Assembly (NCBI GenBank): GCA_964019425.1 | Contig: OZ025804.1 | Span: 930,001-994,000, forward strand | DNA length: 64,000 nucleotides | Direction of reading: 5' to 3' | Source: Flectonema sp. DT1601 | Lineage: Eukaryota | Shown: positions 6,393-30,139 of the stretch, in pieces | Layout of the letters: every line of letters starts with the position of its first letter | Position numbering within the stretch: the stretch's first letter is position 1 | Notes under the pieces: model-generated | Told to the model about the DNA's origin: nothing | The model's database searches: none | The model's input: the letters and a program-made list of their open reading frames with translations, nothing else | Made by a program: the position numbers and the translations under genes

Positions 6393-9300
6393 TCAACGTA
6401 AGAAGTCAGGTCGATGGAGTCTATGAGCTGATGCCGGAGGAGGTGAGCGAGTTACTTGCGGAGGAGATAAAAGCGGAGTTGGCAGTAACCTACTACGTGG
6501 TGTTGCATGAAAATGTGAAGTGTTCGGCGTCACGTAATCACAAGGCTGAAGTAGACCTTCAGATGGCCTACTAACCAACTCACCAACACTTGTGAATATA
6601 GTTCCCACACATGTTACTTCAAACACTGGAATACCAGGAAGAGTACCTTCAGGATAAAGTGTTCTAAAAGTTGATAAAGTACTTTCTAACCACTTTGTAA
6701 AAGGTGATGCCTCATCACAATTAACAGTATTGGTGTAGCTACTCAAAGTCAACAACGCTTCTTCAAAACTGTTGGAATTTAGAAGAACGTGCATAGCTTT
6801 TTCAGGACCAGGTTCCGGTTGTAGTTCACGATCTTCTAACTCGTACATCCATTCCTTTGAGTTTAGTCTTACGAGAGCCTCACCTAACAGGGCTGCTACT
6901 TCTGTAGGTTTTCCTCCAAAGACAGATGCGACACTAAAGAATCTCGCAAATTTAAAAGTGTGTCCCCAAAGATCTAAACATCTTCCATACGGCAACAGGC
7001 ATCTAGCCTTTGCCGCTTGAGCGACCCTGCAAAGGTTGTCAGCTTCCTCGATGATACCTCCCATGATGTGAAAAGTTCTGATCTTGTCGTTTCCGAGTGA
7101 TCCACAATGTGCCAGCCCACTGTTAACACCGCAGTTGGCGTACGTGCATTTCTGTGTGATAATTATCGCGACTTGGCAGATTTTCTTAAAATCTGGATGA
7201 CGGCGTTGTTCAGTCATCGATCCCCAAGAACCAATAATTGCGTCCTCTGTAATTCTGTGAACTGTTCCGTGCATCAGTTCTATTTCATGAAGACAAACAC
7301 TTAAGAAGTCAGTTTGCATTTTTTCAGGTTCCTTTTCTGGAGGGCTTCTCGTTTCAGATTGATGTGCGAAAATTCTTCTGATCACTAAAACCGATACGCA
7401 TCGTACAGCGTGGTCTAGCTTTTTTCCAAGACCACTAGCAGCACGGGATGTGATGTCTGTAGAACCTGTTTTACTTGGTTGACGATCCTTGTTGTGATCT
7501 ACAGTCGTGAACTCTGTTGTATTTATTTGATTGGTGTCAATAGTGGCGGTTGCTTCATCGCTGTCGTCTTCACTTTCATTTCTGACAGCCTTTACGACTG
7601 ATTGTGGAATGTACTTTACGAACTCTTTCATCATAATAGTAATGTCTTTTATAGCCAATTGGATTCTATCTGGATTCTCAATCGTAAACACTTTCTCTAA
7701 TGAATTGAAGTCCAAAACAGCAACTGCTTCAGCCATTTCTGCTGCTAGAACTTGTGCTCCAAAAGCGCTTTCATAACGAAGTCTTTGATGTCTCCATTTC
7801 CAAGCAAAACCACCAAACAAACCCGCAGCTACAACAACTGTAACGCCACCAATCACTCCCACTAATATCCAAACTAGATTATTGCTGGCTGATGATTCTT
7901 GTTTTGGAAATATAAATTGATCATTACACATCAGTTCTGATAGTTTTCCATTTGTTCCATTCTCAGTAATGGGAAACATCAAATGCTTCTTCAGTGAATC
8001 GGTTGTCTTGTCAGGTGTTACTAACCACTGTGCAAGAAATGCATGTGCGTTGCTGCATTCCACTCCAGTGACTCTCTTTTTAACGTAGAAAAAGACTCTG
8101 TATATAAAAGGATAAAGAGAATAGTCATCTTCAGTATTAGGTATTTGAGATAAAACAGTCAAAGAAGGAACATAAGGAACACTATTGACTACCGGATACA
8201 TAAGTTGTAGATTCCATTGTGTCGCTAGAGTGTAGTCGACTACTGCTATGCTTCCGATGGTGTCTTTGACGTGTTGAAGGACGTCAGCGTTTGAATCGAA
8301 GACAACATCAGGTGAATTGGAAGAGTTTAACGAAAACTCAAATCGCTTGCTGAGTTGCCCGACTAGTCGTTTGTACAACACGAGACTCTTGTGAGCGATT
8401 ATCTGAATTGGAATATTTTGTTTTGGGACGTATGTTGACCTAGCTGAGAGTCGAGAATCGTTCCAGTACTTAAGTTTACCCGCAAATATATCAGAAATCA
8501 CCTCCACATCCAACTCCATTGAAGGAACTGGTATCCCAAAATTACATGCAATAGTCAACATCCCAGCAGCAAATCTAATTTTAATATATTCGTTTTCAAC
8601 GTCTTCAGGTAGAGAATCACTCTCCGACCTGAGCATTACATTCGCTTCCTCTGCAGCTGAAACTTGAACATAGTCTCTTATGTTTTCTTGATAGTATTTG
8701 TATCCCAATTCGTTAGCGATTCCTTTAAACTCCTGTTGATCTCCCGTATAAAGGGGTATTGGAGTACTTAGTCTTTGGGTTCCACAATTAATTGAAAGCT
8801 TGTCAAGGACTTCGTTAATAATTTTATTGTCAAGTGGTACAAGGTTATTAGCATTTATAATAGCACGTGAAACAGAAGACGTCAGCATCCAAACGATAAA
8901 CGAAACTATTTCACAAGTTTCGTTCCCAGGTGTAGTAAAAAATGCTAAATAAGAAATTCCCGCAATGGGATACCCGACCTCATCTACTAAATCACCAGTA
9001 AGTCTATTCGGTTCTAACGACAGTCCTGTTGTCGCTGTCTCACCATCACTCCATCCAGGGATTGTCAATGCCTCAGCTCTGTTTGCAACTGTCGCAAATG
9101 GCAGCCCTTCTTGTAAAACACCTGATATACCACTGTATCCTATACTAAATGGTGTTTCTGAAACATATTTAAGAACCCCACTACTTTTTGATCTCCTTTC
9201 TATTGTTGCTTTGTGTGGCCACGTGTTTGTAACTTGACCTTTCCAATAACCAAAACTCGCAAGAGCTTTAACCATAATTTCGGTTGTCCCACTGCTGTCA

Positions 9301-9755
9301 TCTCTGACTACAACTCGAATAGGTTCATCGGGAAGGTATTTCGAAGGATTGATGCGAGATATTTGAGGGTCTGACCACCTAGTAATATTTCCGATGAATA
9401 TTTTACCGACAGTCTCTCTGTCTAATATAAGTGATTTGTAGTCTCCGATATTAAATGTAATCGCAATTGGTGCTGCTACAACTGGAATCATCTGCAAGTC
9501 AGGTTTCTGAAGGTAAGATTCGTCATCGAATAGTGAATCAGTTCCTGCCATGGTTGCTGCACCAGATAATAATTTTCTCTTTCCACTTCCACTTCCGACA
9601 CAATCGTATGTTATCTTGCTTGGTTCTTCTCCAGTGATTTCATTATAGCTTTCTAAACAAGCTTGCATAACGGGACAGAGCAGACTGCTGCCTGCAGCAG
9701 TTAGGCATTCCGATGTTGGAACCATCCCAAGTATAATGATGATGAGTAGCCTCAT
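6393..9755 (-). CDS. Receptor-type protein, 1120 aa: signal peptide, two PstS-like phosphate-binding domains, one TM helix, degenerate class III nucleotidyl cyclase domain
   Basis: PstS motifs AAGSS, Y..VGSGSG, AGTDS, GNITRWSDP, RDDSSGTT, GYPIAG. Second PBP-like domain (IFAGKLKYWND). TM LVWILVGVIGG...; cyclase-like FVKYIPQSV, GTVHRITEDAIIGSW, GVNSGLAHCGSLG. Confidence 0.85.
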   Translation of the reverse strand: MRLLIIIILGMVPTSECLTAAGSSLLCPVMQACLESYNEITGEEPSKITYDCVGSGSGKRKLLSGAATMAGTDSLFDDESYLQKPDLQMIPVVAAPIAITFNIGDYKSLILDRETVGKIFIGNITRWSDPQISRINPSKYLPDEPIRVVVRDDSSGTTEIMVKALASFGYWKGQVTNTWPHKATIERRSKSSGVLKYVSETPFSIGYSGISGVLQEGLPFATVANRAEALTIPGWSDGETATTGLSLEPNRLTGDLVDEVGYPIAGISYLAFFTTPGNETCEIVSFIVWMLTSSVSRAIINANNLVPLDNKIINEVLDKLSINCGTQRLSTPIPLYTGDQQEFKGIANELGYKYYQENIRDYVQVSAAEEANVMLRSESDSLPEDVENEYIKIRFAAGMLTIACNFGIPVPSMELDVEVISDIFAGKLKYWNDSRLSARSTYVPKQNIPIQIIAHKSLVLYKRLVGQLSKRFEFSLNSSNSPDVVFDSNADVLQHVKDTIGSIAVVDYTLATQWNLQLMYPVVNSVPYVPSLTVLSQIPNTEDDYSLYPFIYRVFFYVKKRVTGVECSNAHAFLAQWLVTPDKTTDSLKKHLMFPITENGTNGKLSELMCNDQFIFPKQESSASNNLVWILVGVIGGVTVVVAAGLFGGFAWKWRHQRLRYESAFGAQVLAAEMAEAVAVLDFNSLEKVFTIENPDRIQLAIKDITIMMKEFVKYIPQSVVKAVRNESEDDSDEATATIDTNQINTTEFTTVDHNKDRQPSKTGSTDITSRAASGLGKKLDHAVRCVSVLVIRRIFAHQSETRSPPEKEPEKMQTDFLSVCLHEIELMHGTVHRITEDAIIGSWGSMTEQRRHPDFKKICQVAIIITQKCTYANCGVNSGLAHCGSLGNDKIRTFHIMGGIIEEADNLCRVAQAAKARCLLPYGRCLDLWGHTFKFARFFSVASVFGGKPTEVAALLGEALVRLNSKEWMYELEDRELQPEPGPEKAMHVLLNSNSFEEALLTLSSYTNTVNCDEASPFTKWLESTLSTFRTLYPEGTLPGIPVFEVTCVGTIFTSVGELVSRPSEGLLQPCDYVTPNTSHFHATPRSRLLPTPLLSPPQVTRSPPPASAHRLHRPDFLR

Positions 9756-9779
9756 CTTTTCTCCGAAGGTGGAGACACC

Positions 9780-10050
9780 TGTGGGGGGTTACGTAAATGT
9801 ATTGTATCATAAAATAACATAACGATAATTTAATTCCGAGATACAGTGACTAAAGTAATGTTAGTGTAGGTGTCTGTGGGGGGACTTGGATAAATAAGTT
9901 TCCGTCCACGTAAAATTATGCTCAAATAAACTACCAGAAAGAAATGCTAGCAAATGGGACCACGTGCTGTCAAGTTTTTTTTTGAGTCAAGTATGGGGAT
10001 TAGGGAGAACAGATCGAGCGCTCCGTGCCCTGTAGTCCGTTACAATGAAT
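9780..10050. repeat. Dispersed non-coding repeat, related copies at ~39500-39910 and ~49770-50190
   Basis: Shared blocks tgtattgtatcataaa..taacataacga, gggggacttggataaataag, aaataaactaccaga. Confidence 0.75.
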
Positions 10051-10254
10051 ACGGACCGAATGAAGCTCATTCGGTCCGTGATTCGTGTTAAGAGGGGTCA
10101 TTCCGCTGCTCTTCTGACGTCCACCACTTTCTCGTGTAAGGAATTTTTTTTTTTTTTTTTTTGAGTGTTTCACTACTGTGTTTCTCCTTCTTTTTGTTAC
10201 TACTATAATTGCTTAGGCGCTGCCCTTACTGGGTGGCCGTTCACTTTTTCGAGA

Positions 10255-10464
10255 CAATGGGGGATGCGACACGGAAACTGATTGCGCTGTGAGGCGCGGT
10301 GCGTACAGCGGGGTTCGAACCGAGGCCGATTGGGTGCGGGGGCACCACCCCATCCACTGCACTATGACGCCCCCTAAAATGAGGGGCGGGGCGGGTTTGA
10401 ACCCAGGCCGACCACGTGAAGCTGTATTGCGCTGTTAGGCGCGGCACCACTAGACCACCCACCC
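10255..10464 (-). ncRNA. Tandem tRNA-like (A-box/B-box) units of ~85-90 nt; one near-identical to 16175-16258, the rest diverged
   Basis: Minus strand GGGTGGG-TGGTCTAGTGG...GGTTCAAACCC...CATTTT, then TAGTGCAGTGG...GGTTCGAACCC. The cloverleaf is incomplete. Confidence 0.5.
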
Positions 10465-10968
10465 AAATGAGGGGCGGGGCTTTTTTTTTTTTTTTGGTTA
10501 CACTCGTCTGTGCTACCAAACTCTTTGTTTTTGTTCTTTTCACTTCTATGTTTTGTCTTTCTTTTATACTTTCTTTTGGTTTAAGTCTGACAAATTGGAA
10601 AACACGGGAAACATAGGTAGGCTCCGCCTGAGGACGTAAGAAGAGCGGCAACGGAAAAAAATAAATGGTCACGCGTCCTTGAAATTGGACACATGAAGCT
10701 AATTCGGTTACCATTCCTACCATCGATAAGGAAAACAAAGAATCGAGCATATAACTAGAGCGGTGGTCAAAGACCACTTGAACAGCCCGAAGGCCTGCCC
10801 TCAAGAGAAATTTAAAGGAGAATAGGAGAAGAAGGAGACAGGAGTGTTGGATGAGACACTGCGACAACACCGAAGGTGATGTGCAGTCACCCAACCAGGA
10901 GATGATTGATAATGATGGAAATACTAAAATAATAACAAATTGATATTGGCGACTACATGTCACCTACT

Positions 10969-13900
10969 TTATTTCCAAAGTCTAAGGTTAGATGTCTGTT
11001 CCATCCACCTTATGATCAACGCGAGTGATGGAAGCCACGCCAAAGTGAAGAGGGCTTCAAGGTTAGGAATTTCGTTGGCAATAATAAGTTCCCGATCGCG
11101 ATCCCACTTGCCGGTCAGTGTTGAGAAGCCCAGGATTTTGAACCTGGCCGAGTCGAGTTTGGGAGATTGACATCCCTGCAGCAGGTGAACCTGTGAGGAC
11201 GGTTCGCCACAAAATGGGCAGTCGATATTTTTGCGCCAGTTCTGAATTAGCGGGTGACATCCTGTCCGGAAGTTCGCTATCCGTATCTCGTCGGCTCTTT
11301 CCATCCCAGGAGGGTATTTAACGGAACGGCCTCCGATGAGGTGTTTGTAGCAGGTGTAGCCACTCACGTTAAGCAGATCCTTTTTGATGCAGCGCTTAAC
11401 ATGTGATGATCGCGAGAAGTAAGTGCCTTTGACTAGCACAGGTCGGATGTTCTTGTTGTGCGCTGCTTCCTTTGCAAGCGCGTCAACTTCATCGTGAAAC
11501 TCGATTCCAATGTGCGAGGGGATGAATTGCAAATGCACTTTCATTTCACACATGCGCAGGTATTCTAGTATCTTGAGGGACTCAGTATTCCTCTGTCTGC
11601 ACCTTCCACCCAGCAGTTCATCCAGAAGGGATTTTGAGTCCGTGAATAGCCTTACAGATCTCATTGAAGGATCTTTGCTAAACACTGTTCTCAGATGTCT
11701 AGCCGCGTTCTTCAGAGCATGTTGTTCAGCCCTGTAGCTGCAGTCAGCTTGATAGAGCCTAGACGCGTAAGCAGATCGAAGGCCGCTACGTGACTTGGCA
11801 ATATGAGCCGCTCCGGCCGCGCCGGAAGCAGAGTAGGAGCCATCGCAGTTGATTAACATGTCGACAGGAGGTAACGTTCCAATGTACGACATGAATTTTT
11901 CTTTGTCCACCGCAGGGTTCGCGGACTTCGGAAATCCGCAGCCGTTGCTAATCCTAAGGTTTGTCGGAGATACCCAGGGTTCCATCGAGTCAGGCTGTAC
12001 AAGGCACTGGCTTTCACGCTGGCTGTCAATGCCAGGAAGGAGGCCAGCCCAGTAGCTTTGGGTTGAGGCGAGTCTGTTGGTACTAGGTATCCAAGTCATG
12101 GCTTTATACCTGTAGTACGCTATCTTGGTTTGCTTTTCGATCTGACGTTTAAAGGGAAGCATGTCCGCTTCCCACAGTAGAAGTTCTCTCGGTGTGCACC
12201 TGCTGCATCCAGTAACCAGCCTGGCAACCTTCCTCAGTTCGAAATCAATACTATCAACGCTGTTGCTTATCAACCAACCAAAGCTATCGAGCGCATAAGA
12301 GATTCTCGCAGTTACGTAAAGGTTCTTGACCATATTTAGCGTTTTGTAGTCAAGATCATACGGTTGAAGGCATTGAAGCAGAGATATTCCCTTTTTCAGT
12401 TCTTCATGAATCTTAGCCACCTGTTTGTGGAAAGTGAGTCTGTCGTCGATGTGAACTCCGAGGTATTTCACTGAGTCCACGATTGGCAACAGAAATGCGG
12501 TTTTAAATCTGGCTTTCACCACCATCACGTTGTTTTCGAGAACAATATTCCGCAACATCACGTTGTCAAGTTCGTCTTGCGTTTTGATCGGAGTTCCATC
12601 AACCTCGAGAATAGTTTCGCCGCTTTGAAGCATGGGTCTAGAAGAGTTTAAGTTGATACTCTTTTCAATGTCACTATAGTCCATTTTGATAACGTTTTCC
12701 ACAACAGATCTGGAAAATAGTAATTCGCGATTGCAGGTGTCGTTGAGAATCGTATCCTTCGTACGGACTTTCATCTTAAGAGCACAGGTCTTTGAGACCG
12801 ACAGGGCCATGTCGTTGTCAGAACACCATTGATCCACTTTATCAAGTATTATTTGAGCATTTGAAAGAGCTTCTTCCATGTTATGTCCAGATACTACACA
12901 TGCTGTATCATCCGCATACAGAGCAGACGTCGTTGTTTCTTTCTCCAGTTCCAAAATCTTGCAGAGGTCATCAACGTAGATAAGATAAAGAAGAGGACCC
13001 AGGATCGATCCCTGTGGAACCCCCTTAGCCAGAGTACGGAATTCACTAAGATAACCATTCGCTTCAACTCTAACCTTCCTGTTTGTAAGAAAGTCTGTGA
13101 TCCATCTGATAATAACATTCGGAACACCCATCTTTACCAATTTTAATAAAAGTATCTTATGGTTGATCCTGTCAAACGCAGCAGTAAAATCAAACGATAA
13201 GAACACCGATCTCTTTCTCTTCATGTGCATCCTTACGACGGCATCTACCAAAACGGTGATCTGTTCGCAGGTATTTCTCCCCCTTCTGAATCCAGCCTGT
13301 AGTGGGCTGAGTGACGAATGTTTAGTGAGCCAGTGCATGAGTCGGTCATACACGAGCCTCTCCGCAAGTTTCCCAACAACCGATGTGAGCGTAATGGGTC
13401 TGAAACTCTTCAGTTCATTTCGAGGTTTTCCAGCCTTGAACATAGGCTTGATTAGTCCCTGTTTCCATTGGTACGGTACTTTTGAAGTCTTCCAGGAAGT
13501 GTTAATAATTCTCAGGAGGTATTCCACTGTTGCCGGAGTGAAGTTTTTGATCATCTCATTGTGAACTCCATCAGGTCCTGCAGCCTTGCGGGTCTTCAGG
13601 TTCTTAATCGCAGCTTTAATTTCAGCCATTGTGAAATCACAGCAAATATCTATTTCATTATCACCTTCTGAGAGTGCGGGGGCCTCTAGCGATAATATTT
13701 CCGATTTCGAGACAAACAGGTCCAAGAATGCTGATGGTAGGTCGCAGTCGGAGATGTTGTTGACACTGATATCTTTACCAGCATCTTGTTGCAGTTCTTT
13801 GATCTTCTTAAACGCGAAGGCAAAGTTGTTACCCTTGTCAAGTTGATCACGTAGGTGGACACCCTTCGATTTGGTAGAATCAGGTGTTGACGTCTTCCAC

Positions 13901-14880
13901 TTTCGTCTCCGTTTCCCTTTGAAAAGGACACGTCGACGAATGAATTTAGCCGCCACTTCATGCAGTATGTTGTTAAAGAGCTTAGCATTCGCAGTTGCAT
14001 CGTTGGAGAGTTTCGATTTTCTAATTCTCTTATCGAGCATATTTCCAAAGCAGTTCCAGTCCGTAGACTTGAAGTCCCACACCACACGTTTCTTAGAACC
14101 TATCGTGGCACGTGTAAGTTGACACATGGGATCCAGTACGGTGTAGAGAGGTCGGTGATCAGATCCATGTTTATTATCTTCTCTAATTACAGAGAATTCT
14201 TCCAGAATCATCGAGTTTTGAAAAAATACTACGTCCGGCGAGGTACCGCCCCCCGGGATATTAGGAAAAGGCCTTGTGATTGACCCCATCTTGTTGGCTA
14301 CCAGTAGATCATTGTGTGCTGCCCATTCATGTAGAGTAGAACCTGCTGGCGTCGATTTTGATGACCACACCGGATGATGGGCATTAAAGTCACCCGCGAC
14401 GATTGCTTTCGTTGAGACTGGAAGATCTGACTTTCTGATCTTGCATCCCGGGGGAGCATAAATATTTAAGATGTCAATCTTTCCACCTATGTTGACCTTT
14501 ACAACTTCAACATCATTTAAGTGAGGCGGAAGTACGATATCAGAACGCTGCTGAGTGTGGCATTTCTTCACCATAGTAATAACCCCACCACCCCGTGTTG
14601 CCCTATCATTCCGATAGGTAAAATAATCCGTGTGTGAGACTACATCTTTTGTCCAAGTTTCTTGCAGGCACAGTACGTCAGGCGCATAGGCATTGAGCAG
14701 CTTGTGTATGTAGGCACCTTTGTTCCCCATCGATCGACAGTTCCAGCTTAGTAGTGATATGAGGGAGTCGTCAGGGCCAGGGTTGCGTTCGACATCGCCT
14801 GCCTGAAGCAGCAGTTCACGAGCCGTATTCTTTTCTGTGAGTGAGTTGGTCGGATTTAAATCATCGTCATCTTCATCTAG
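10969..14880 (-). CDS. LINE ORF2 polyprotein: 2A-like peptide, AP endonuclease, reverse transcriptase, RNase H, C-terminal CCHC; frame is open 50 codons upstream of the first ATG (14730)
   Basis: APE: LLSWNCRS, LCLQET, AGDFNAHH, GSDHRP. RT: DFTAAFD, GVPQGSILGP, YADD, YLGV. RNase H: CDGS, AEQHA, TDSKS, HDEVD. Knuckle CPFC...HLLQGC. No internal stops. Confidence 0.93.
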   Translation of the reverse strand, partial: LDEDDDDLNPTNSLTEKNTARELLLQAGDVERNPGPDDSLISLLSWNCRSMGNKGAYIHKLLNAYAPDVLCLQETWTKDVVSHTDYFTYRNDRATRGGGVITMVKKCHTQQRSDIVLPPHLNDVEVVKVNIGGKIDILNIYAPPGCKIRKSDLPVSTKAIVAGDFNAHHPVWSSKSTPAGSTLHEWAAHNDLLVANKMGSITRPFPNIPGGGTSPDVVFFQNSMILEEFSVIREDNKHGSDHRPLYTVLDPMCQLTRATIGSKKRVVWDFKSTDWNCFGNMLDKRIRKSKLSNDATANAKLFNNILHEVAAKFIRRRVLFKGKRRRKWKTSTPDSTKSKGVHLRDQLDKGNNFAFAFKKIKELQQDAGKDISVNNISDCDLPSAFLDLFVSKSEILSLEAPALSEGDNEIDICCDFTMAEIKAAIKNLKTRKAAGPDGVHNEMIKNFTPATVEYLLRIINTSWKTSKVPYQWKQGLIKPMFKAGKPRNELKSFRPITLTSVVGKLAERLVYDRLMHWLTKHSSLSPLQAGFRRGRNTCEQITVLVDAVVRMHMKRKRSVFLSFDFTAAFDRINHKILLLKLVKMGVPNVIIRWITDFLTNRKVRVEANGYLSEFRTLAKGVPQGSILGPLLYLIYVDDLCKILELEKETTTSALYADDTACVVSGHNMEEALSNAQIILDKVDQWCSDNDMALSVSKTCALKMKVRTKDTILNDTCNRELLFSRSVVENVIKMDYSDIEKSINLNSSRPMLQSGETILEVDGTPIKTQDELDNVMLRNIVLENNVMVVKARFKTAFLLPIVDSVKYLGVHIDDRLTFHKQVAKIHEELKKGISLLQCLQPYDLDYKTLNMVKNLYVTARISYALDSFGWLISNSVDSIDFELRKVARLVTGCSRCTPRELLLWEADMLPFKRQIEKQTKIAYYRYKAMTWIPSTNRLASTQSYWAGLLPGIDSQRESQCLVQPDSMEPWVSPTNLRISNGCGFPKSANPAVDKEKFMSYIGTLPPVDMLINCDGSYSASGAAGAAHIAKSRSGLRSAYASRLYQADCSYRAEQHALKNAARHLRTVFSKDPSMRSVRLFTDSKSLLDELLGGRCRQRNTESLKILEYLRMCEMKVHLQFIPSHIGIEFHDEVDALAKEAAHNKNIRPVLVKGTYFSRSSHVKRCIKKDLLNVSGYTCYKHLIGGRSVKYPPGMERADEIRIANFRTGCHPLIQNWRKNIDCPFCGEPSSQVHLLQGCQSPKLDSARFKILGFSTLTGKWDRDRELIIANEIPNLEALFTLAWLPSLALIIRWMEQTSNLRLWK
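14773..14817 (-). other. 2A-like StopGo (ribosome skipping) peptide ELLLQAGDVERNPG|P
   Basis: In-frame translation matches the D(V/I)ExNPGP consensus with the usual upstream LLL..G helix, immediately before the APE domain. Confidence 0.9.
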
Positions 14881-14883
14881 TCA
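14877..14883 (-). promoter_or_regulatory. Candidate stop-codon readthrough signal UGA-CUAG at the end of ORF1
   Basis: Plus strand ctagtca = minus strand TGA CTAG. The frame continues without a stop into 2A and ORF2. Confidence 0.75.
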
Positions 14884-16174
14884 GTTGAGGTCAAAATCCG
14901 AGTCATCATCTTCCATTTCAACATCGCCGTTCTTATCACCTTCTTGTTTAACAGCAGATTCAGTGGGTGGTGGAGCTGATGCTGGTGTGGGTGCTGGCGC
15001 TGGTGTCGGTGCTGCTGCCGTCTGATGTGGTAGCTGAGTTGGTTGTTGTGGTTGAGGAGCTGTCTTCTGTCTCTTCAGGGTTCCTGTCAGTTTTTGAGCC
15101 GCGTCGCCTGGGTTGTAGGTTGGGCCTAGCGGTTTTCTGTCACTTTTCTTAACTTCCTTGTTTATCACAAGGTACTCATTGGTGCCTATGCTCACGAAGT
15201 TGGGAGGCTGCGTGTTTGAAATCGCCACAATCGTAGTGCTTCCACCTTTGTTAAACGATGCGACCACTGTGTGCTCCCAGTTGTGAGAGGACTTCATAAA
15301 GTCGCTGATCTGCGCTGTTGAGAATTTCCGTATCGCCATTGATTTTATAATGTACCTGTCACCGGAAGGCAGTGCAGGTTTGAGTGACGCGCTTAACTTA
15401 ATACGCACTTCAGTGTTGCAGTCGGGATGAACTCGGAGTCCATAACAGGTTTTGAACTTACACAGGTAGAATTTACCTTCGAAACCTTCCAGTATTGATG
15501 TCTTGGACTTTGCTGCCAAGAATCCAAGATCGTTATTGAATTGAAGAGTTGGCCAGACATCGCTTCCATTTGACCAGCTCGGGTTTCTGACAAATACATT
15601 CTTAGGTTTGTCGGTCTCCGGGTCGTTATTGTTAAACTCCAGAATCTTGTGTACTTGGTTTCTGGGAATTCTAATAGCCATTGAGGAATGTGAATCATTT
15701 CGTTTGTAACTGAAAGGGGCTGCATTAATCTTTTTCTTTTTTAGCAGTTCCTTTGTTTTGATCGTTAGATCTTTTTCACTTGATTTGCCCCAATCCTGAA
15801 CAAACAAGACGGGGTCGGGTGTCGGATGTTGAATTTCGGATGTGGCTTTGGAAAAATCTTCACCACAGATATGCGTGTAGAAGACTCGTCTGATTTCGCA
15901 GACACCACCCTTTTTGATCACCGGTATGGCGACAGGCACCGTGCTTTTGGTTAGCGGTACTTTGCTGATTGCAGCCCATCGACCACTCTTCTTTGTCTGA
16001 CGGAGAGCTTCCCAGTCCTGTTTAGAGCGTACTAAAACAAGACCCGATGCGAGATTGTTGGTAGCATTCGCTGCTACGTCGTAGTTGATTGTAGACACAG
16101 TGCCCGCCCACGCGCCGTGTACATGCCATTCCGGGTAGCTTGCTTTAGCATTCCCCTTTGTGGTTTGTTTGGGG
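14881..16174 (-). CDS. LINE ORF1 (basic, with Pro/Ala-rich and acidic C-terminus); 5' end apparently missing
   Basis: Open frame from the element junction to TGA at 14881-14883. First ATG is ~165 codons in. No recognisable domain. Confidence 0.75.
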
Positions 16175-16258
16175 CAAATGAGGGGCGGGCTTGAACCCAG
16201 GCCGACCACGTGAAGCTGTATTGCGCTGTTAGGCGCGGCACCACTAGACCACCCACCC
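16175..16258 (-). ncRNA. tRNA-like Pol III unit divergent from tRNA-Ala
   Basis: A box TGGTCTAGTGG, B-box-like GGTTCAAGCCC, complementary ends. 16191-16258 is identical to 10397-10464 (68 bp). Confidence 0.5.
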
Positions 16259-16353
16259 TCCAGGAAAGGAACAAAAACAAGAGTTTGTGCCTCACCTGAA
16301 AAGGCCGAGATCAGTAGACTACAGAAGAGGTAACGAGGGCTTTTTTTATTATC

Positions 16354-16425
16354 GGGGGATTAGCTCAGTGGTAGAGCGCCCGTTCTGCATACGGGAGGTC
16401 GAGGGTTCGAACCCCTCATTCTCCA
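16354..16425 (+). tRNA. tRNA-Ala(TGC)
   Basis: Full cloverleaf: acceptor GGGGGAT/ATTCTCC with G3:U70, D arm GCTC/GAGC, anticodon stem CCCGT/ACGGG with loop TCTGCAT, T arm GAGGG-TTCGAAC-CCCTC, then a T7 terminator. Confidence 0.93.
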
Positions 16426-16829
16426 TTTTTTTCGGTTATGTTTTTTTTGCAACCTGGTTCGCAGTCAATGTGTGAAAAATACTGGGCCGGAATTGAGTTT
16501 TTTATGGCGCATTTTTTCCGGGTGAAAATGAGGAGTAAAACTAATACCTGAATACGCATTTTAACTTTCACTTTGCACCTGATTTCATTCCCGCTGCGAT
16601 CAAGAAACTCTGATATTTTTGTGTGGTGAAAAATCCGAATAATGGAACTGGTGATGTCTAATCGGCCCTACCTGGGTGCTAAAATGATCTGTATATGGCA
16701 TCAGGCTCGGCCGCTGAAGAACTTTTTATCGAAGACATGTTTTACAAGCGAAAGAGAATTGTGGCAGGTAACGTTAACACCCTTTATAGGCTTGTTTCCG
16801 GTTGCGCACAAACAAAAACAAAGTGAGAA

Positions 16830-17399
16830 TTATTTAGTGAGGTGCCGATTCTTTTTATTATTAGGATTAGCTCTTTTAGCAACTTTTACTGCTGGCTTTC
16901 GTCGTTTTCCTACCGACAATGAACCGATAATAGAACTAGAACTAGAACTAGATTGACTAACAGAGCAAGAGCCAGTAGAAGACTCACCAGAATCTGAGGT
17001 GGGTTCAGTTGGATTGATCGGCTCTGCAGGGATGCTGACAGATGTGTAACGCGGATCACTAGTCAGCCTTTTTGCTCGCTGGTAGCAAGCGTTGCAGATT
17101 GAGCGCAGAGGAGCATACGCCGGGGATTTCAATACTACCGTAAAGTCACGGCAGGGTGGCTTAAGAAGCTTGTTGAACTTCGGGTTCCGTCTTTTCGCGT
17201 TAGTGTGCGAGGTGCAGTTGTAGTTGTCTGAGGAGCACGCCTTGTCGGTTCTTGTATTCCCGAAGTGCTTGTATTTCCGGAGGCATGCGATGCAGATGTT
17301 GCCTTTTCTCCCACTCCGATTTAGCGTCCTCATTACAGGTTCTGGTAAATTAGCGACGACATACTCAGCTGGCATTTCGTGGCACGTGTGACACTTCAT
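16830..17399 (-). CDS. Hypothetical Cys-rich basic protein (~189 aa) with CxxC pairs, Ser tract and NLS-like tail
   Basis: MKCHTC, CIAC, CNAC motifs; KRRKP. No family recognised. Confidence 0.45.
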   Translation of the reverse strand: MKCHTCHEMPAEYVVANLPEPVMRTLNRSGRKGNICIACLRKYKHFGNTRTDKACSSDNYNCTSHTNAKRRNPKFNKLLKPPCRDFTVVLKSPAYAPLRSICNACYQRAKRLTSDPRYTSVSIPAEPINPTEPTSDSGESSTGSCSVSQSSSSSSSIIGSLSVGKRRKPAVKVAKRANPNNKKNRHLTK

Positions 17400-17704
17400 T
17401 GTGACGTTTAAGCTGGTGCTGAAGGGAATAATAAGTGTAGTGACGAGAAAAAATGCCCATCTCTGATGCACTTACCTTTTTTTTCCAGCAAAAAAATTAA
17501 ATGCAGCAACAGGATTAACTTTTCCTTGTCGGCAGTGACATTCTCTTAGTACCAGCAACGCACCTGTCAGGTTCCAACGGTCAGTAAAAAAAGTGGGGAA
17601 CCTTTCCACCTCGTATTTTTTGACCAACGGCTGCTAGCAGCAAAACTGGTTTTCGCGGCTGGTTATTTTTCCCCACAAGAATATTTCCCTTTACAGTAAT
17701 ACAA

Positions 17705-17830
17705 AAGAATCGGCAAACTTCACTTTTTTACTTACTTACTCACACTTTTATTTTGTTTTGTGCGCAACGTAGGTAGAAAATCCTAATAAACTTTCTACCA
17801 AACAATGGGTTTGTAGATACAAAAATAAAA
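17705..17830. repeat. Dispersed repeat (aaagaatcggca..cttcact...gtttgtg.gcaac), also at ~5557-5700, ~40298-40340, ~50562-50620
   Basis: Direct visual match of blocks. Confidence 0.75.
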
Positions 17831-18459
17831 TAAAATGAAGAACACTGGTTAGATATTAATTTTGTTCTTTCCTCAAGTGGTGTGTTATCCAGAAATTCAG
17901 TTAGAAAACCTGAGGGGGTAATTTGATAGGTTGCACATCGGGTTAAGACATTTAATTGGCAAAGTCCAGAGCGGGGAATGAAAAGAAAACAATCATCCGT
18001 CCCTCTATGCTTTACGCGAACATCAGAATTGACCTTCATGGTTAAGGGTACCCCAGTGTTTCTACCTATTTTCATTTTGTTTCTTCAATAAAGAAACAAA
18101 ATGACGTAAGACAGTTAGATTCACATTATTTGAATTATACGAATTACAATAATATTTTCTGATTCTTAAATTACATTCTGTTCTTTATTTTTGTTTCATT
18201 AGATAAGTACCTTCTTTCGAGTTATCGCTCACGGCTCTATTTTTACACGAAGAGAACAAACAATTTAGAGATTGGCATTGGTACTCACTAGATAAATAAA
18301 AGAGAAGATTGTTTCTTTGAAATTATTCTGCACTTGTTGCATATATAAAAACATACCTAGTTTGAAGGAAAATCTCCTACTTCAGTCGCACTTTGAGAAT
18401 ACTAATTCATGATTACACTGCTTCGGGGAGCTGAACAGACCCATGGATAAACAGGAATC

Positions 18460-18840
18460 TTAGTCACACTTCTAAGACTTGAAAGGTCAAGAGCAGTGAG
18501 TTGTGAGCAACAGTTGTACTCTTTTTGTTCATGTATCCTGTTGGTCATGTCTGCTTTGCTTGGTTTCATCTGCTTCTGCACGGTCGGAATTCAAGACTGC
18601 TGCTGGTTTAGAGCAGTGGGTCTAATTAGTTGATAATAATTTGTTGAATGTGTGTTCCCATTATTTATTATCATCATCATCGTTCTTCCCTCAGTTCCTC
18701 TGCGAAGTCGCGGAGTGGTATGAGTAACAAGAAAATACGTTCAATAGTCGTTACACTACTAAGACACTGAGTCGAACAGGAAGACAAGAAATAATCTCCA
18801 ATAGTGGCGACGGTAATAAGGCCTGAAAGGTCAACAGCAT
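18460..18840 (-). pseudogene. Fragments of the LRR gene family seen at 45987-47375
   Basis: ctaagacttgaaaggtcaagagcagtgagttg at ~18471-18503; DLSGLITVATIGDYFLS at ~18780-18840. Confidence 0.7.
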
Positions 18841-18875
18841 ACCAAATAACCGAAACAACTTCTACGTATGCACTG

Positions 18876-19966
18876 AGACAACACCGAAGGTGATGTGCAG
18901 TTACCCAACCAAGAGATGAGTGATAAAATAAAATACTAAATATTGATAAAACACTTAAATGGCGACTACGTGTCACCTACACAATTCCAAAGTCTCAGGT
19001 TGGATGCTTGTTCCATCCACCTGATCAACATCGCTACTGAAGGAAGCCAGCTGGTGGCAAAGATTGAGCCAAGACTGGCAGGAATGCCGTTGAGGAGGAT
19101 TAGATCACTTGATCGGTCCCATTTGCCTGTCAATGTAGAAAAGCCAAGGATTTCATATCTGGCTGCATCGAGTTTCTGCGATTGACAGCCTACGAGTAGG
19201 TGGAGCTGGTTGGATGGAGCGCTTTGGCAGAATGGACATTTGATGGCTTTCCGACAGTTTTGCATCAGTGGATGACACCCCGTTCTGAAATTCGCAATTC
19301 TAATTTCATCGCTCCTTTTCATGCCGGGAGGATATTTTATTGCGGAACCTTTGGTGATGTTCTTGTAGCATGTGTATCCAATTCTGTTCCGAATGTCCTT
19401 TATGATCCCCCTCCTCACTCGAGATTTGTGATAGAAGAAGGATCCTCGGATTGGGATTTGAGGGAGGTATCTGTTGTGAGCCGACTTCTTAGCAAGTTCA
19501 TCAACTTCGTCGTGTGCTTCAATCCCCATGTGAGAAGGGATGAATTGAAGATGTACTTTCATACCGCAGTTCCGTAGGTTTTCAAGGATGCCAAGGGATC
19601 TGGTGTTTCTCTGTTTACACCTGCCACCCTTCAACTCGTCCAACAATGATTTTGAGTCGGTATAGATTCTGACTGACTTAGTTAGCCCGTCTTTCTGTAC
19701 CTTCCAGTTTAAATAGTTTGCCGCATTTTTCAAGGCATGTTGCTCAGTTCTGTAGCTGCAATCCGCACGCACACTATCTGGTCGCGTGAGCACGTTTCTT
19801 TCCGTCTCGTGACTTAGCAATGAGAGCGCCTGACGCACTCGAAGAGTATGAACCGTCACAGTTGATCACCATGTCCACCGAAGGAAGTGTCGCGTTGTAG
19901 GTAAGGAATTTCTCCCTGTCCACTGCGGGATCAGGAGATTTTGTAAAACCGCAGCTGTTGCTGAAA
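18876..19966 (-). mobile_element. 3' fragment (RNase H, CCHC, part of the 3' UTR) of a diverged relative of the 10481-16174 LINE; frameshifted near 19790
   Basis: ADCSYRTEQHALKNAA, TDSKSLLDEL, CPFC..HLLVGC and WMEQASNLRLW align with ORF2. UTR blocks match 10864-10968. Confidence 0.9.
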
Positions 19967-20394
19967 CACGTCGCTCAATCACCTAGGATATAATGCAGGT
20001 TTTTGAGTGATCTTGAATGTTTGAGTACCTGCCAAATTACTATTTGGTTAATGGATTGACCGGACCTTAATCTGACCACTCCTCACATATTTGATATCTG
20101 TTAGAGAAACTACTAACTGATATAGTGATGGCGACTGCAAGTCAGCAAAACACCATTTCGAGGAGTGCTCTTCTGCGCGATGGTTAGTTCATTAAAATTA
20201 ATTATTCATTTTCCTGTTTTAAAAAAAAAACAGGAAGAAAAATAATAAATAACCATCGAAAAACAAAGTTCTACTTATCTATAACACGAATGCTATTATC
20301 TAACTTTACAACAACTTGAAGTAATCAAGTCATCTAAATTAATGCTTCGATGGTAATATTAACAAACATACAAAAAGAAGGTAGCCTATCTAAT

Positions 20395-21738
20395 CTACTG
20401 AACACTATTTTGGTATCTGTTGATTCGAGTCAGCAAAGTTCGCATCTTTCCAGAAGCAGCTATTCCAAGTCCCTTTGCACACAGTTGTAGCTCACGGTAA
20501 GTCATTTCTCTAAGTGGTGGTTTTGATACATTCCCAACTAATGACCCTTCTTCATAAGATAATCTCATCATTGGTGTCGCAATTGAAACAGACGATTCAT
20601 CAGCAGGCGATCTGAAGACTACACTTTTACGGTCAGAAGTTGGATTCACGCTGAGACGAGAAACTAAATTCGGAGTACTCGAAACAACAATATTCGATTC
20701 CTCATCAGGAGAAGGTTGAATTCCACGTAAAGACATTCTGGTTACATATGGTGATTGGGATACTTCAATCTCATGAACTGTTTCTGGAAGAGAAATGTTA
20801 TCATCAGCGTCTCTCATTATAACGTCGCTACCTGTCGGTGATGATTGTTGAGGAGAACTACTCATTCTCGCTTTGGTACTTCTGATACTAAATCTCATTA
20901 AAGAGTTCTCAGGTTGTGAATCCATCTCAGAAGGTTGGTATGTGAAAGGAGACACAAGAGGAGGAGCGCAGACTAGACAATCTTTATCAGATGATTTCAT
21001 GTTCTTAATACTTGACATCCTTTTCTCCATCTCATCCAACCCAATTGATTTCCTTGAATGTGGTGTACAGTTAGCACCATTACTGCGAGCTCTGTCTGCT
21101 AAGCAACTGAGTCGATTTTCAACCTCTCTTACCTCAGGACAGGTTGAAGGAGTAGCAATCGTGCTCTCTCCTTCATCGTCCATTGGATCGTCGTCCCTTG
21201 GAACACTCCCATCATAAAATTGTTTCTGGAGAGGTGTTAACAACAATTGCATTTGCGGACCCCCAGCAGATGCATTCTCACCTTCCGAGCGGTTTTGCTT
21301 GGAGATTGGAGTCACACAAACAATCTTTGTTGGTGTTTTTGTTGTGCTCAAACGACCAACATTTTCCTCACCAGCATCGTCGTTCAATTGTTGTTGTTGT
21401 TCAGCCGTCAACACAAGTTGGAGTTGCATTGAACTCGTGGAAGGTTTCTTTTGTTTTATTATTGGGATCCTTGCGGGTCTCGGTGTTGTAATCATCTTTA
21501 CGGTGGTTTGCCTTTGTAAGACAATTTTCCGTGTTGTTGGTTTTACGGTTGTTTTTTGTTTCAATACCATCGCTCTACTCATCCCAGAGGACACCTTTGA
21601 CTTTACATTTTTCGATGTTTTCATGAGGTTTTTATTCACTTCTGGCAAACCGAATCCAACCTTGCCTGCATAAGGAGAACGAGTAGCGCTGCACCACTGC
21701 GGTCCTCGAACTGGAGTTCTTGGTGTGCTCTTCACCAT
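20395..21738 (-). CDS. 447-aa low-complexity S/T/P-rich protein with C-terminal SAP-like motif
   Basis: Long ORF, many SP/TP sites, MTYRELQLCAKGLGIAASGKMRTLLTRI. Confidence 0.75.
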   Translation of the reverse strand: MVKSTPRTPVRGPQWCSATRSPYAGKVGFGLPEVNKNLMKTSKNVKSKVSSGMSRAMVLKQKTTVKPTTRKIVLQRQTTVKMITTPRPARIPIIKQKKPSTSSMQLQLVLTAEQQQQLNDDAGEENVGRLSTTKTPTKIVCVTPISKQNRSEGENASAGGPQMQLLLTPLQKQFYDGSVPRDDDPMDDEGESTIATPSTCPEVREVENRLSCLADRARSNGANCTPHSRKSIGLDEMEKRMSSIKNMKSSDKDCLVCAPPLVSPFTYQPSEMDSQPENSLMRFSIRSTKARMSSSPQQSSPTGSDVIMRDADDNISLPETVHEIEVSQSPYVTRMSLRGIQPSPDEESNIVVSSTPNLVSRLSVNPTSDRKSVVFRSPADESSVSIATPMMRLSYEEGSLVGNVSKPPLREMTYRELQLCAKGLGIAASGKMRTLLTRINRYQNSVQ

Positions 21739-25952: not shown

Positions 25953-28900
25953 TTACCAATCCTCGTGTTCTTGCCAGAAACCTTTATTTTCATCAACTAT
26001 GCCGGTGGCCATTTGCATGTGATCAAGAAACTCACCCATACATTCGAATAAAGGCATAACTATGTAGTTCATGAATCCAATCTGTCCCTTGGAAACGACT
26101 GACGTGAATCGATCCATGAAAGGAGAGACAGCCATTCCGTGAAGTCTTTCTCTGTCTCCTTGTTGATAGAATTCATCAACGATTACATTACACCATCCGT
26201 GATATAATTTCTTTGGACGACCACAGTTCGAGATGTCAGCCATCTTTATTGACATTGTTATTGCTAAGTTTCGATCTTGTTTTGTTTTGTACATTTTGCT
26301 ATCAACTAATTCGATTCTCTTTTTAAACCTCGCAACGAACATGCTGTGTAGTCCCATGTCAGTACCAAGAACGAACTCAATAATGTCTTCTCTCATTCTG
26401 ACATAAGTTTCTCCTTCGAATGCTTTCAGAATGTTGAATTCATCTATTCTCATTAGCTCAAATACACTTGAGGCGTGAATGTTTTCATTGACAGATCTAT
26501 CATTGAATAAAACCGCGAGGTAGTTTTGTGATTTAGTGTGGAACGCGTTATTAATTCCTGGATGATTGTAGTCATGAATCGCTGCAGCGAACAGTGCTCC
26601 GAATATCTCTTGATCAGATGCTTTAATCTTTGCCTGATGGAGGAGGAGAGTTTTTTTTTTTTTTTTTTTCAATACTCAAACAAGAAAAAACAACAACATA
26701 CCCTACAACCACCTGAGTACAATATGTAATAAGTAACGTGAAGAACATCAGCTGCGTGCATACTATTATGATATGGATTCGGATGGTATCCAGCCTCTAC
26801 TACCGACAACCAGTTAATAAGAACCTGCTCATCGATGTTAAACTGTTTTTTTCATATTGTTGTCTTGTTGTTGTAATCACAGAATACAAACATTAATATA
26901 AAATAGCATACCTTCTGCATAAACTGACACTTAAAACAGAGAGCGTACATCGTAATGAACAGAGCTCCGCCGTGGGGTTGTTCTCTGAGGCATTCTCCTG
27001 AGATGCCACCAGACATTGCTGTTTGTAGTTCGAAGACATCGAAATCCCAATCATCCAATTTTGAGACACAATCATAAATAAGTTGCCGTTTATCATTATC
27101 TATACTGGAAGTGACCTGTGTGTGAGAGTTTTTGTTTTGTTTTTTTGTTTTGTTTTTTTTATAATTTTCATAAAAGAATCAATCCATACCTTGGCAAACT
27201 CTGAAGAAAGATATGGCTGAATCACATTGCAATATTTCTGATCTGGAGTACATTCTTCAGTAGCACCCCCATCAGGCGATAAGTATCGAGACTTGAGAAC
27301 TTTCAAAAGTTCTTTATCGACATCTTTGCAATCAGGTGGAGTTAATACTCCAGGTGGAAGTGGTGCTTTTAGAGGGTTTCGTACCTTTGATTTGGTTTGT
27401 GATTTTTTGTTGGAAAAAAAAAAAAAAAAAAAAAAAAAGACATTTTAATAAAACAAATACAAACCTTGATTGCCAACGCGTCTTCAGTTTGTAATTTTAT
27501 TCCGTCAACACAACCACCTGCGGCTCTGACTTGTTCTTCAAGTTTTGCGAGTTCCTCTTTGAGGTCTTGTTCTTTAGTATTGCAACAGGCAATACAAGCA
27601 TGAAGAGCCTGTTGATTTATTTGTAGTTGATTTAAAGTAAAGCTAATGTATTACACTCGAAAATAATATAAATATAAGTATCTACAAAATCGTTGTTGAA
27701 TCTGGAAAAAAAAAAAAAGAAGAAGAAGAAGAAAAACACACCGATTCCTCACTGTATGCTACGATGCTTTTATTGCCACAGCTTTCAGCTTTTGATTTGA
27801 TGTCGTTAATCTTTTTTTCTAAATTTGATTTTTCAGTCTGCCGAATGTCAAGACTGCTATGGATACCTCTTACAATGATTCCATCAATATCAGAGTCATT
27901 AGCAATAGGAAGATTAAGGGTGTTATTCTCGATTGTGATTGAGCAGCTGTCGGAGGATATGGTGGCGGAAATCGACGGATTGTCCTCAAAGTCAAGTATC
28001 AGTTGTTTTAATTTTATCTCTTTCTTATCAAGACTGGCATCATCAAATTTCATATGATATCGATTACCTTGTGTGTCAACAACCATTATCCAAATTGAAG
28101 CAGAGTCTGGACCAGGTCTAGCACATACTACAGCGTTTTCATTATCAGTCAGTGATACAATCTTACCCATCGACTGTAAAGCGGATTTTACTTGAGCGGC
28201 GTCAGATCCTCCGTCGGCTTCCCAGTTCTCACGATTTACATTTGTTTGGTCCATTATAAACTGGAGTTCTGGAGCCATTGAAACAAATTCTTTTGCGATT
28301 GGAGAAACAATGTTATCAATCACAGTAATCATTCCGTTAGCGAACTCATATTCATGTCGGGAAGGGTCAGTTGACCAAGTGCTCCCAGCGATGTATGGAC
28401 TTGGAGAAAGACCCAATCCAACTTCTAGTTCTCCTTGTTTATAGAATTCATCAGCCATTAGTCTCGTCCATTTACGTTGGAGTTCATCAGTTTGTGAGAG
28501 AGATGAGTAGTGGCAAAGTCGTATTGCGTGGGTTAGAATAATCCTCACGTTGTCTTTTGATGACCTCTCGGTATCGGATGATTTGATATGTAAGAAATCA
28601 GCAAGCCTCTCAGAGTAATGAACCATCTGAACGTTGGCTTTAATCACCAAACATTCTCTAACAGCTTCAGTTATATCACGAGCACCATCAACCGACAGAG
28701 ATGCTAATAAATTTGTTTTTGGGCTGCTCATTAACTCAAATGCCGCAGTGCAGATATTCTGAGCAACAGCATACAAATCCGAGTACAACATCGAAAGCAT
28801 TGAACCAGCTCTTTTAATGAACGTATCAGAGACTCCCTCGTTACCTAAATTGTAAACACCACATGTGAAAATCATCGTGAATATATCTTCAGGGGCCAGC

Positions 28901-30054
28901 TGTAATGGTGCCTTTAGCGCTTGAAGCATCGTATGAGCACAAAATAACATCTGAACAGACTGAGTGTGGTTGTGGAATTTTGACGACGTGTCAACCGCTT
29001 GAACTGCATTCCAATAGTTGCGAAGGATATCTCCGTCTATACAAAACTTTTCAACCAATCCATAGTGATGGAACATAGCAACAGCTACATCTGCGAGACT
29101 GGCTTCTGTTTCAAATGCTGAAGAATTCCAAGTAATTTCTTCCAAGTTTAAAGCGTGTTCGGGTTTTTCAGACTGTTTCACACTTTGATCATACATTGAG
29201 TCTAATGGATGAGACGGAACAATTCCGTTCTGTCGGTCAAGTTCTTGATGAAGAATCTTAATTTTACCTTCCAACTTACCACAAGCTCTCCTCGCAGCGT
29301 TTGCATCTGATCTTAGATTTGGTAAGATGTTTAAAATCCGACTTGATTCTTCTGCTGCTTCGATAATACCTTCAGAGACTGCATAAAGAGCGTCTTTCAC
29401 ATTGTAGTCGGGTTCTTTAGACTTGACGTCTTTCTTTTCTGATTCTTTTGCAGCTGCTTGCGAAGCCTTCTTAATCTTTGGATAGCTCAGTAGGAACCCG
29501 AGAGACGCTTGTTTTGATCCATTTTTCTGGAGGTCGAGTTTCCAGGTTAGAGTGTCCATTCCCTTCGATTTAAATTTAATTTCGAGAACGCTTTCTGAAA
29601 ACGAAAGTTGATTCTTACTTAAAGCTGTTGCTAACATTTTCCAGAAGGCTGGCCATTCAAAGTCTCCTAATCCTTTCTTCATCGTTGATAATTTATCATG
29701 AGTTATATCTGCCGAATAGACTTCTTTTACTTTTGTTTTATAACACGAGAAGCTAATACCTGACGGTATTGGTGAATACAAATATAAAGCCCTTGATCCG
29801 ATGTTCAGTCTCGGTTCTCCACAAGACTTGTTTCTCTCCGAAATCCAATCATCATCTTCTGACTTTGCGTCACCTCTGTCGACGGTGTTTGGTTGGTTGC
29901 TTCTCGCTTCAGCTTGATAATCTTTTTTTCCATCGTCTTTTACATTTTGATCTGTTTTCTTTTCATTAGTACCCGAGTGTACTTCAGGTCGCTTATCTGC
30001 AGGTGTGGCATCAGCAACTCTTTGATCTTTAGCGGTAGAACTACCGCAACCCAT
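25953..30054 (-). CDS. Class I cyclic nucleotide phosphodiesterase, 6 exons (30054-27742, 27608-27465, 27384-27190, 27115-26912, 26842-26702, 26633-25953)
   Basis: Splicing at GT-AG sites gives a continuous frame with YHNSMHAADV, HDYNHPG, ENIH, GTDM, ADISN, EFYQQGD, QIGF. N-terminal MGCGSS acylation-type motif. An upstream degenerate PDE-like domain is also present. Confidence 0.92.
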
Positions 30055-30139
30055 ATCATACTTGTACCCCTTTAAGGGGGAAAAAATAAAAGGGAAAATA
30101 AAGGGCTATAAAGGTGCACTCCAAAGCTCAAAGGAACAG

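Follow-up and report, generated by a model that had tools for sequence, protein, structure and literature searches.

How can a LINE retrotransposon translate its second open reading frame (ORF) when that frame opens directly behind the ORF1 stop codon and its first in-frame AUG lies inside the endonuclease? LINE ORF2 translation has been called an open question (PMC3894237, PMC3708506). It arises here from a two-ORF element in a 64,000-nucleotide stretch of the Flectonema sp. DT1601 genome (contig OZ025804.1, positions 930,001 to 994,000; hereafter the window), which lies on the minus strand and runs from about 16170 down to its poly(A) tail at 10495–10481 (Table 1). The junction codons on this strand are GAT TTT GAC CTC AAC TGA CTA GAT GAA. 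An earlier note on this DNA had described an ORF1 end DFDLN-TGA-CTAG continued by 50 codons without stop or ATG, and the minus-strand reading is exactly that: the frame behind the ORF1 stop reads LDEDDDDLNPTNSLTEKNTARELLLQAGDVERNPGPDDSLISLLSWNCRS, passing through GDVERNPGP and SWN, before the first ATG at 14730 (codon 51 after the stop). On balance we think it probable that ORF2 of this APE–RT element is reached by UGA-CUAG readthrough and that ORF2p is then released by a 2A peptide.

Table 1. Features of the LINE in the window; positions are those of the forward strand and codons are counted from the ORF1 stop.
Feature	Position	Strand	Evidence
ORF1, 5′-truncated; disordered tail ends DSDFDLN	14881..16170	-	P0196 100% identical over shared part
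Last ORF1 codon AAC (Asn), P-site codon during stop decoding	14884..14886	-	Sequence
TGA stop and CTAG context, candidate readthrough site	14877..14883 (TGA 14883-14881)	-	Sequence
+1-frame mini-ORF ATG AAG ATG ACG ATG ATT TAA (MKMTMI)	14856..14876	-	Frame translation
2A-like peptide PTNSLTEKNTARELLLQAGDVERNPG/P, codons 10-36 after stop	14773..14853	-	Sequence
SWN, first APE endonuclease strand	14740..14748	-	Pfam and sequence
First in-frame ATG, codon 51	14730-14728	-	Sequence
APE endonuclease domain	14146..14751	-	PF03372 codons 44-242, E 2e-12; PF14529 codons 137-245
Reverse transcriptase domain (YADD)	12760..13422	-	PF00078 codons 487-707, E 4e-34
RNase H-like region, approximate limits	11446..11856	-	Acidic motifs by eye; PF00075 in relatives P0003/P0004
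ORF2 frame, stop to stop, 1303 codons, intact	10969..14880	-	Ends TAA 10971-10969
3′ UTR and 15-nt poly(A) tail (10481-10495)	10481..10968	-	Sequence
Candidate target-site duplication, 3′ copy	10465..10480	.	Equals 16176-16190 except one G
Candidate target-site duplication, 5′ copy	16176..16190	.	Sequence; duplication 15-16 nt

The element is of the APE type, with an endonuclease followed by a reverse transcriptase (RT) in ORF2, and shows the hallmarks of a LINE: a poly(A) tail, a short target-site duplication, 5′ truncation and many copies. Its ORF2 matches P0001, which stands for a cluster of 101 members, at 99%. All eight differences listed between 13308 and 13494 against a record of run X2 are synonymous third positions, as expected under purifying selection. 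The RNase H region of the window copy has no Pfam match at E ≤ 0.1; a fragment of a sister family at 18969–19865 matches PF00075 (RNase H) with an E value of 0.0014. The window copy is 5′-truncated at about 16170 and lacks approximately the first 120 of 549 ORF1 codons (full-length ORF1 is P0196, 549 aa), and a record of run X1 extends beyond 16170 as these missing codons. The mechanism proposed here therefore applies to the full-length copies of the family. ORF1 matches no Pfam family. A six-sequence model of P0196 (mean pLDDT 50) contains three small α/β domains, whose best Z scores of 7.0–7.4, a weak match, are to RRM/KH chains; Foldseek against the PDB gave no match at E ≤ 0.001 and the ESM Atlas no usable match. 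ORF1p is thus predicted to bind RNA through RRM/KH-like domains, a prediction that the model fits, short of proof.

That initiation at 14730 would cripple the endonuclease, its SWN motif lying upstream of the first ATG, had also been claimed, and the domain alignments bear it out. Position 1 of the Pfam Exo_endo_phos model aligns at codon 44, seven codons ahead of this ATG, so a start at codon 51 would lose the first strand and its Asn. Likewise ExoIII, although a weak match (E 0.39), aligns from codon 43 onward, with its first-strand Asn opposite the Asn of SWN. Upstream, codons 1–16 of the window copy include neither AUG nor any start codon with one mismatch; the first such codons in the linker are AAG17, ACG19, CTG23/24 and ATA41. 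An out-of-frame AUG sits directly behind the CTAG and opens the mini-ORF MKMTMI, and a U-UUA-AAU heptamer in the linker has the register of frame 0, such that slippage there would leave ORF2.

Family A, to which the window copy belongs, thus has the anatomy of UGA-CUAG readthrough: a UGA, the CUAG and an open frame beyond. On the two strands of the window, CTAG comes next after only 4 of 2553 TGA trinucleotides, and CTA after 30; by itself, this rarity is suggestive, not decisive, for one junction taken from many LINEs scanned. One 151-letter record of run X2 covering 14800–14950 is identical at the junction (depth 2, records that may not be independent), and among the records of runs X1 and X2 one crosses the junction, with no joints. 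Alphavirus-type readthrough is stimulated by a stable stem-loop 3′ of the stop. No such stem-loop is predicted locally here (z of +1.37 over 151 nt and +2.17 over 86 nt), and the RNA on either side of the ORF1 stop folds no better than shuffles. Rfam over 9500–20500 finds a tRNA-Ala alone, with no ribozyme and no SECIS element at E ≤ 1. In human cells, UGA-CUAG readthrough amounts to about 1.5–17%, with the P-site codon as a main determinant (PMC9841425), and UGA-CU leaks in fungi and mammals (PMC4207609). Our literature search retrieved no test of UGA-CUAG leakiness in euglenozoans with the standard code.

The 2A peptide is the second element of the junction. The core of class A 2As is GD(V/I)ExNPGP (PMC3708506), and the window copy has it together with a hydrophobic upstream tract, RELLLQAGDVERNPGP; the predicted skip falls between G35 and P36 (14775). 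Over codons 15–36 this segment is identical to family B at 19 of 22 positions and to family C at 17 of 22 (77%), whereas the endonuclease next to it is only 52–62% identical between A and C. GDVERNPGP and the Leu-rich helix upstream are intact in A, B and C; the motif of the Flectonema protein P0004 is GNVEVNPGP, off consensus by a D-to-N change, and the called P0003 and family F proteins show no 2A. It should be noted that canonical or near-canonical 2A motifs are not always active, several of those in LINEs being inactive (PMC3708506). Further upstream, PTxSx[ST]E (codons 10–16) is common to the window copy, family C and P0004, which belongs to the other branch of the clade. As the conserved peptide begins at codon 10 and codons 1–16 hold no start codon, ribosomes must either enter from upstream or start without a start codon.

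Is the stop a property of this copy or of its family? The closest named relatives are Flectonema neradi transcripts (42–53% for ORF2, 53–54% for ORF1) and the distant ones are Diplonema papillatum proteins, which makes a diplonemid host probable. ENA proteins on long contigs form six families, of which A (that of the window) and B share the 101-member ORF2 cluster, and the ORF2s of C, D, E and F have 37, 42, 74 and 26 members. Between A and B, ORF2 codons 701–800, a variable insert between the RT and the C-terminal part, are 71% identical in surroundings of 94–99%. An RT tree was built from the window, 59 further top-ranking matches and 8 chosen extras, which left 67 rows after one was dropped for its short alignment, none of them a named Ingi reference. 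In it, the Flectonema rows and families A–F form one clade of 11 rows, with support of 100/99. The pairing of ORF1 with ORF2 families is inferred from identity to the window for A, from contigs of the same size for B (241439, 36248) and C (549332, 1452864, 608294), and from a shared Trinity gene for P0003 and P0198. ORF1 is conserved in at least five families. In family A, 8 of the 13 ORF1 proteins listed reach the family terminus DFDLN and stop there, and the rest are broken earlier (13 members, one probably being the window copy and one standing for five contigs). Likewise, 13 of 15 listed family B proteins (20 members) end at DFDLN, the rest being broken earlier, and all 15 listed proteins of family C (18 members) end at its terminus SN. 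The earlier note had asked for TGACTAG, the frame and NPGP to be followed across copies: a fixed ORF1 end and a retained 2A are indeed found in A–C, and TGACTAG with its frame was read for family A, the only one known at the DNA level, the other families being represented by proteins.

The residue ahead of the stop is itself recurrent. Asn ends seven of nine related ORF1 families (A, B, C, two from Flectonema, P0241 and P0244); P0242 and P0247, the most distant pair, are the exceptions. Counting A and B as one gives six of eight, against a background of 3–4.5% (binomial probability of about 2e-7 under independence, an assumption that these families violate). Across the Asn-ending families the tails cannot be aligned; between A and B the last seven residues are identical in a tail that is 68–78% identical as a whole. 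P0198, the ORF1 partner of P0003, whose called ORF2 start precedes SWN, ends in Asn too, so the terminal Asn is not confined to families that have no upstream start, and it may reflect a constraint on the protein. Outside these families, scanning metagenome, viral and prokaryote contigs with ORF1 profiles returned no relative, and a 26-residue Streptomyces match to the ORF1 profile (E 1e-4) was set aside as chance. The pattern TGACTAG-N62-92-2A matched two viral and four metagenome sequences, two of which are the same. The TGA is out of frame with the 2A in all six, which we attribute to chance; there is thus no second in-frame case among them.

The starts called for ORF2 proteins differ between families. 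Among the 15 ORF2 proteins listed for A and B, six begin at codon 51 and hence within the endonuclease; none is fused to ORF1. The called start lies within the endonuclease in four of nine families (A at codon 51, D at 55, E at 103 and the Flectonema protein P0008 at 195; for D and E, starts lying further upstream are possible, and P0008 may be disrupted). In the other five it precedes SWN, at no common position (B 15, C 2–3, the P0004 group 3–5, P0003 40 and F 41). In family C, 5 of 15 listed proteins are called from codon 2 and one from codon 3. Codon 2 is the position at which UGA-CUA-G permits a GUG, and the gene caller does use GTG starts (P0205). On the other hand, the mini-ORF peptide MKMTMI and the family C N-terminus MKPTTV agree at three of six residues, whereby family C may start at an AUG out of frame with ORF1.

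According to the mechanism we favour, most ribosomes would terminate at the UGA and produce ORF1p, and a few percent would insert a residue at AAC-UGA-CUAG and read on into the AUG-less ORF2 frame. These would meet the 2A 35 codons further on and skip at its G/P bond, yielding ORF1p with a 36-residue extension ending NPG, and free ORF2p starting PDDSLISLLSWN (PDDSL). Readthrough would thereby hold ORF2p well below ORF1p while tying its synthesis to the same mRNA; thanks to the 2A, the endonuclease would begin with a short N-terminus that stays constant whichever way the ribosome had entered the frame. We infer the readthrough and its rate, the 2A activity and the ORF2:ORF1 ratio; the shared frame, the missing start codon, the conservation of the 2A and the conserved Asn ahead of the stop, all features of sequence, agree with readthrough followed by StopGo.

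Other routes to the same protein may be considered. Termination–reinitiation without an AUG, which we hold to be unlikely while granting it real weight, supposes that a few ribosomes restart in the linker, at ACG codon 19 (in an A-3/G+4 context), CTG 23/24, ATA 41 or no defined codon, that the 2A trims the variable leader, and that the CUAG is incidental or slows termination. AUG-independent initiation of L1 ORF2 and the coupling in SART1 are documented (PMC5972666, PMC5009743), the linker does contain near-cognate codons in frame, and the 2A would tolerate the scattered starts called upstream of SWN in five sister families. However, the conserved PTxSx[ST]E lies upstream of ACG19, and reinitiation needs neither the in-frame placement nor the CUAG nor a fixed P-site codon, all three of which are seen. 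Less probable again, and in our view quite unlikely, is an ancestral stop-CUAG-AUG arrangement, with reinitiation or leader trans-splicing at the AG and an AUG four bases past the stop; family A would have lost the frame by a 1-nt deletion and now use a frameshift at the mini-ORF stop or accidental leakage. Diplonemids do trans-splice their mRNAs. An ATG AAG stands directly behind the CTAG, MKMTMI recalls the MKPTTV of family C, and the conserved Pro follows at 23 nt in A and at 8 codons in C. Yet the AUG frame of family A closes after six codons with no canonical slippery site in register, the start in family C may be an in-frame GTG, and family A is young, high-copy (the cluster of 101) and intact, so that it needs a working route to ORF2.

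Readthrough could also be real and the 2A weak, or a relic of a single-ORF ancestor, in which case the main product would be an ORF1–ORF2 fusion like retroviral Gag-Pol. The inactivity of several near-canonical LINE 2As (PMC3708506), the D-to-N change in P0004 and the lack of a visible 2A in P0003 and family F as called speak for this, but the intact GDVERNPGP and Leu-rich helix of A–C, conserved better than the adjoining endonuclease, make it very unlikely. As for the TGA being a private nonsense mutation in a single-ORF element, which the earlier note had named as what would overturn its proposal, or a sense codon in this host, the common frame of ORF1 and ORF2 and the existence of single-ORF ORF1p–2A–ORF2p elements (PMC13405545) would allow it. 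It is nevertheless extremely improbable: 36 of the 43 listed ORF1 proteins of A–C stop at the family terminus, seven are broken earlier and none runs on, which makes the stop position family-wide in all three. A fused ORF1–ORF2 protein was found neither among 7986 scored long candidates nor among 10 profile matches, which is weak evidence for absence. TGG encodes all 31 Trp residues in both frames, and TGA closes many long ORFs of the window, which speaks against a sense TGA.

The proposed route, readthrough followed by 2A release, can be set beside known systems. Ingi/L1Tc and five further clades have a 2A ahead of the APE, an arrangement that has been linked to the loss of ORF1 (PMC3708506, PMC3894237). 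The window family resembles Ingi/L1Tc in its 2A directly upstream of the APE, its APE–RT layout and its euglenozoan host; by analogy, the arrangement would work like a readthrough-fed version of the Ingi 2A layout. In contrast, the Ingi clade is stated to be without ORF1 (PMC3708506, PMC3894237), whereas the window family has a conserved 549-aa ORF1 joined in frame by a single stop. Since it does not share this feature and the RT tree holds no named Ingi members, we do not file the family as Ingi; a literature search for an Ingi-clade element with ORF1 and RNase H gave no match. The exceptions with both ORF1 and 2A are CR1-26_BF, CR1-53_BF and CR1-1_LG, and the portion of PMC3708506 available to us does not mention readthrough for them. 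In the group 3 LINEs of Paramecium, ORF1 and ORF2 likewise share a frame and readthrough of the ORF1 stop was proposed from the consensus (PMC5405496), but in another clade and host, and the available text mentions no 2A, leaky context or experiment. The Cordylochernes scorpioides protein likewise has a 2A between its ORF1p and ORF2p domains, but in one open frame with no stop, hence with no ratio-setting readthrough step (PMC13405545). Mammalian L1 and silkworm SART1 share the bicistronic mRNA and the low ORF2 output, and L1 needs no AUG (cited via PMC5972666, PMC5009743), AUG-independent reinitiation being the accepted model for L1. They differ in using termination–reinitiation with no 2A, across a 63-nt spacer and an AUG in L1 and a UAAUG overlap in SART1. 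The same extended UGA-CUAG signal operates in OPRL1, MDH1, AQP4 and LDHB, where it adds short C-terminal extensions (PMC9841425, PMC12233894). Cardioviruses also combine two nearby recoding events, but with StopGo first and the frameshift second (PMC5009743). The D. papillatum genome paper gives, in its available text, no detailed description of its elements (PMC10161547).

The earlier note had presented the tandem as a strategy not described for non-LTR elements, and this holds for the series alone: readthrough followed by 2A in a LINE was not found in passages from open-licence papers, nor in the accessible part of 10.64898/2026.09.24.754024, whereas readthrough (PMC5405496) and ORF1 with a 2A-bearing ORF2 (PMC3708506, PMC13405545) are each known. 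Were the mechanism correct, it would provide a case of readthrough in a LINE, add Euglenozoa to the groups in which UGA-CUAG leaks, and give the 2A the task of detaching ORF2p from the readthrough product; the 2A has so far been thought to replace ORF1 as the means of keeping ORF2p low (PMC3894237, PMC3708506). A young, intact family with an ORF1, a 2A, one in-frame leaky stop and no AUG offers a 150-nt cassette for which readthrough and reinitiation predict opposite outcomes. We may wonder whether the cassette extends to the whole clade, as a diplonemid LINE module of Asn codon, leaky stop, about 35 codons and 2A formed by grafting an ORF1 onto an Ingi-like 2A–APE–RT gene, in which readthrough would set the stoichiometry, StopGo would free the enzyme and ORF2 would need no start codon; this wider idea we advance tentatively, regarding it as rather doubtful. 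Gene callers, for their part, would then be mis-starting ORF2 in families of this kind.

The surroundings of the element contain further repeats. On either side of the LINE lies a 77-nt unit that has motifs resembling an A box and a B box, at 16182–16258 and 10388–10464 (minus strand; copies 98.7% identical), with a weaker copy at about 10262–10352. The unit has no ARAGORN or Rfam call and folds no better than shuffles, and relaxed ARAGORN on the LINE flanks returned only noise among the matches listed. A tRNA-Ala(TGC) gene on the plus strand (16354–16425), about 180 nt away from where the LINE is truncated, is oriented divergently from the 5′ copy, whose start is 96 nt upstream of the gene. 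The unit is a candidate SINE of tRNA origin or a candidate small Pol III gene; the LINE would have inserted into tandem copies of it, and targeting of the LINE near tRNA genes is possible. In P0208, P0248 and P0172, a start made of the translated 3′ UTR and poly(A) of family A passes into family A ORF1, the family C 5′ end or the family E RT; these chimeras indicate that copies insert head-to-tail and into one another. Many families sit on contigs of the same size, suggesting element clusters. Within the window, the 3′ part of a copy of sister family C, from the RNase H onward, lies at 18871–19962 on the minus strand, in the orientation of the LINE, with a frameshift near 19770. An unrelated RT-bearing frame at 34505–37114 (minus strand; PF00078, E 1e-11) is apparently another retroelement that integrated beside or into a ubiquitin-like/BspA-LRR gene (36991–38064), a second copy of which lies at 45987–47411. 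Two related long ORFs at 41819–43525 and 51625–53577 (both minus strand), with no Pfam match and a possible P-loop-like ‘ASGMGTGK’, are perhaps a repeat family. The minus strand also carries a periplasmic-binding-protein-domain ORF of 1131 codons at 6393–9788 and two cyclic nucleotide phosphodiesterase frames at 25953–30105.
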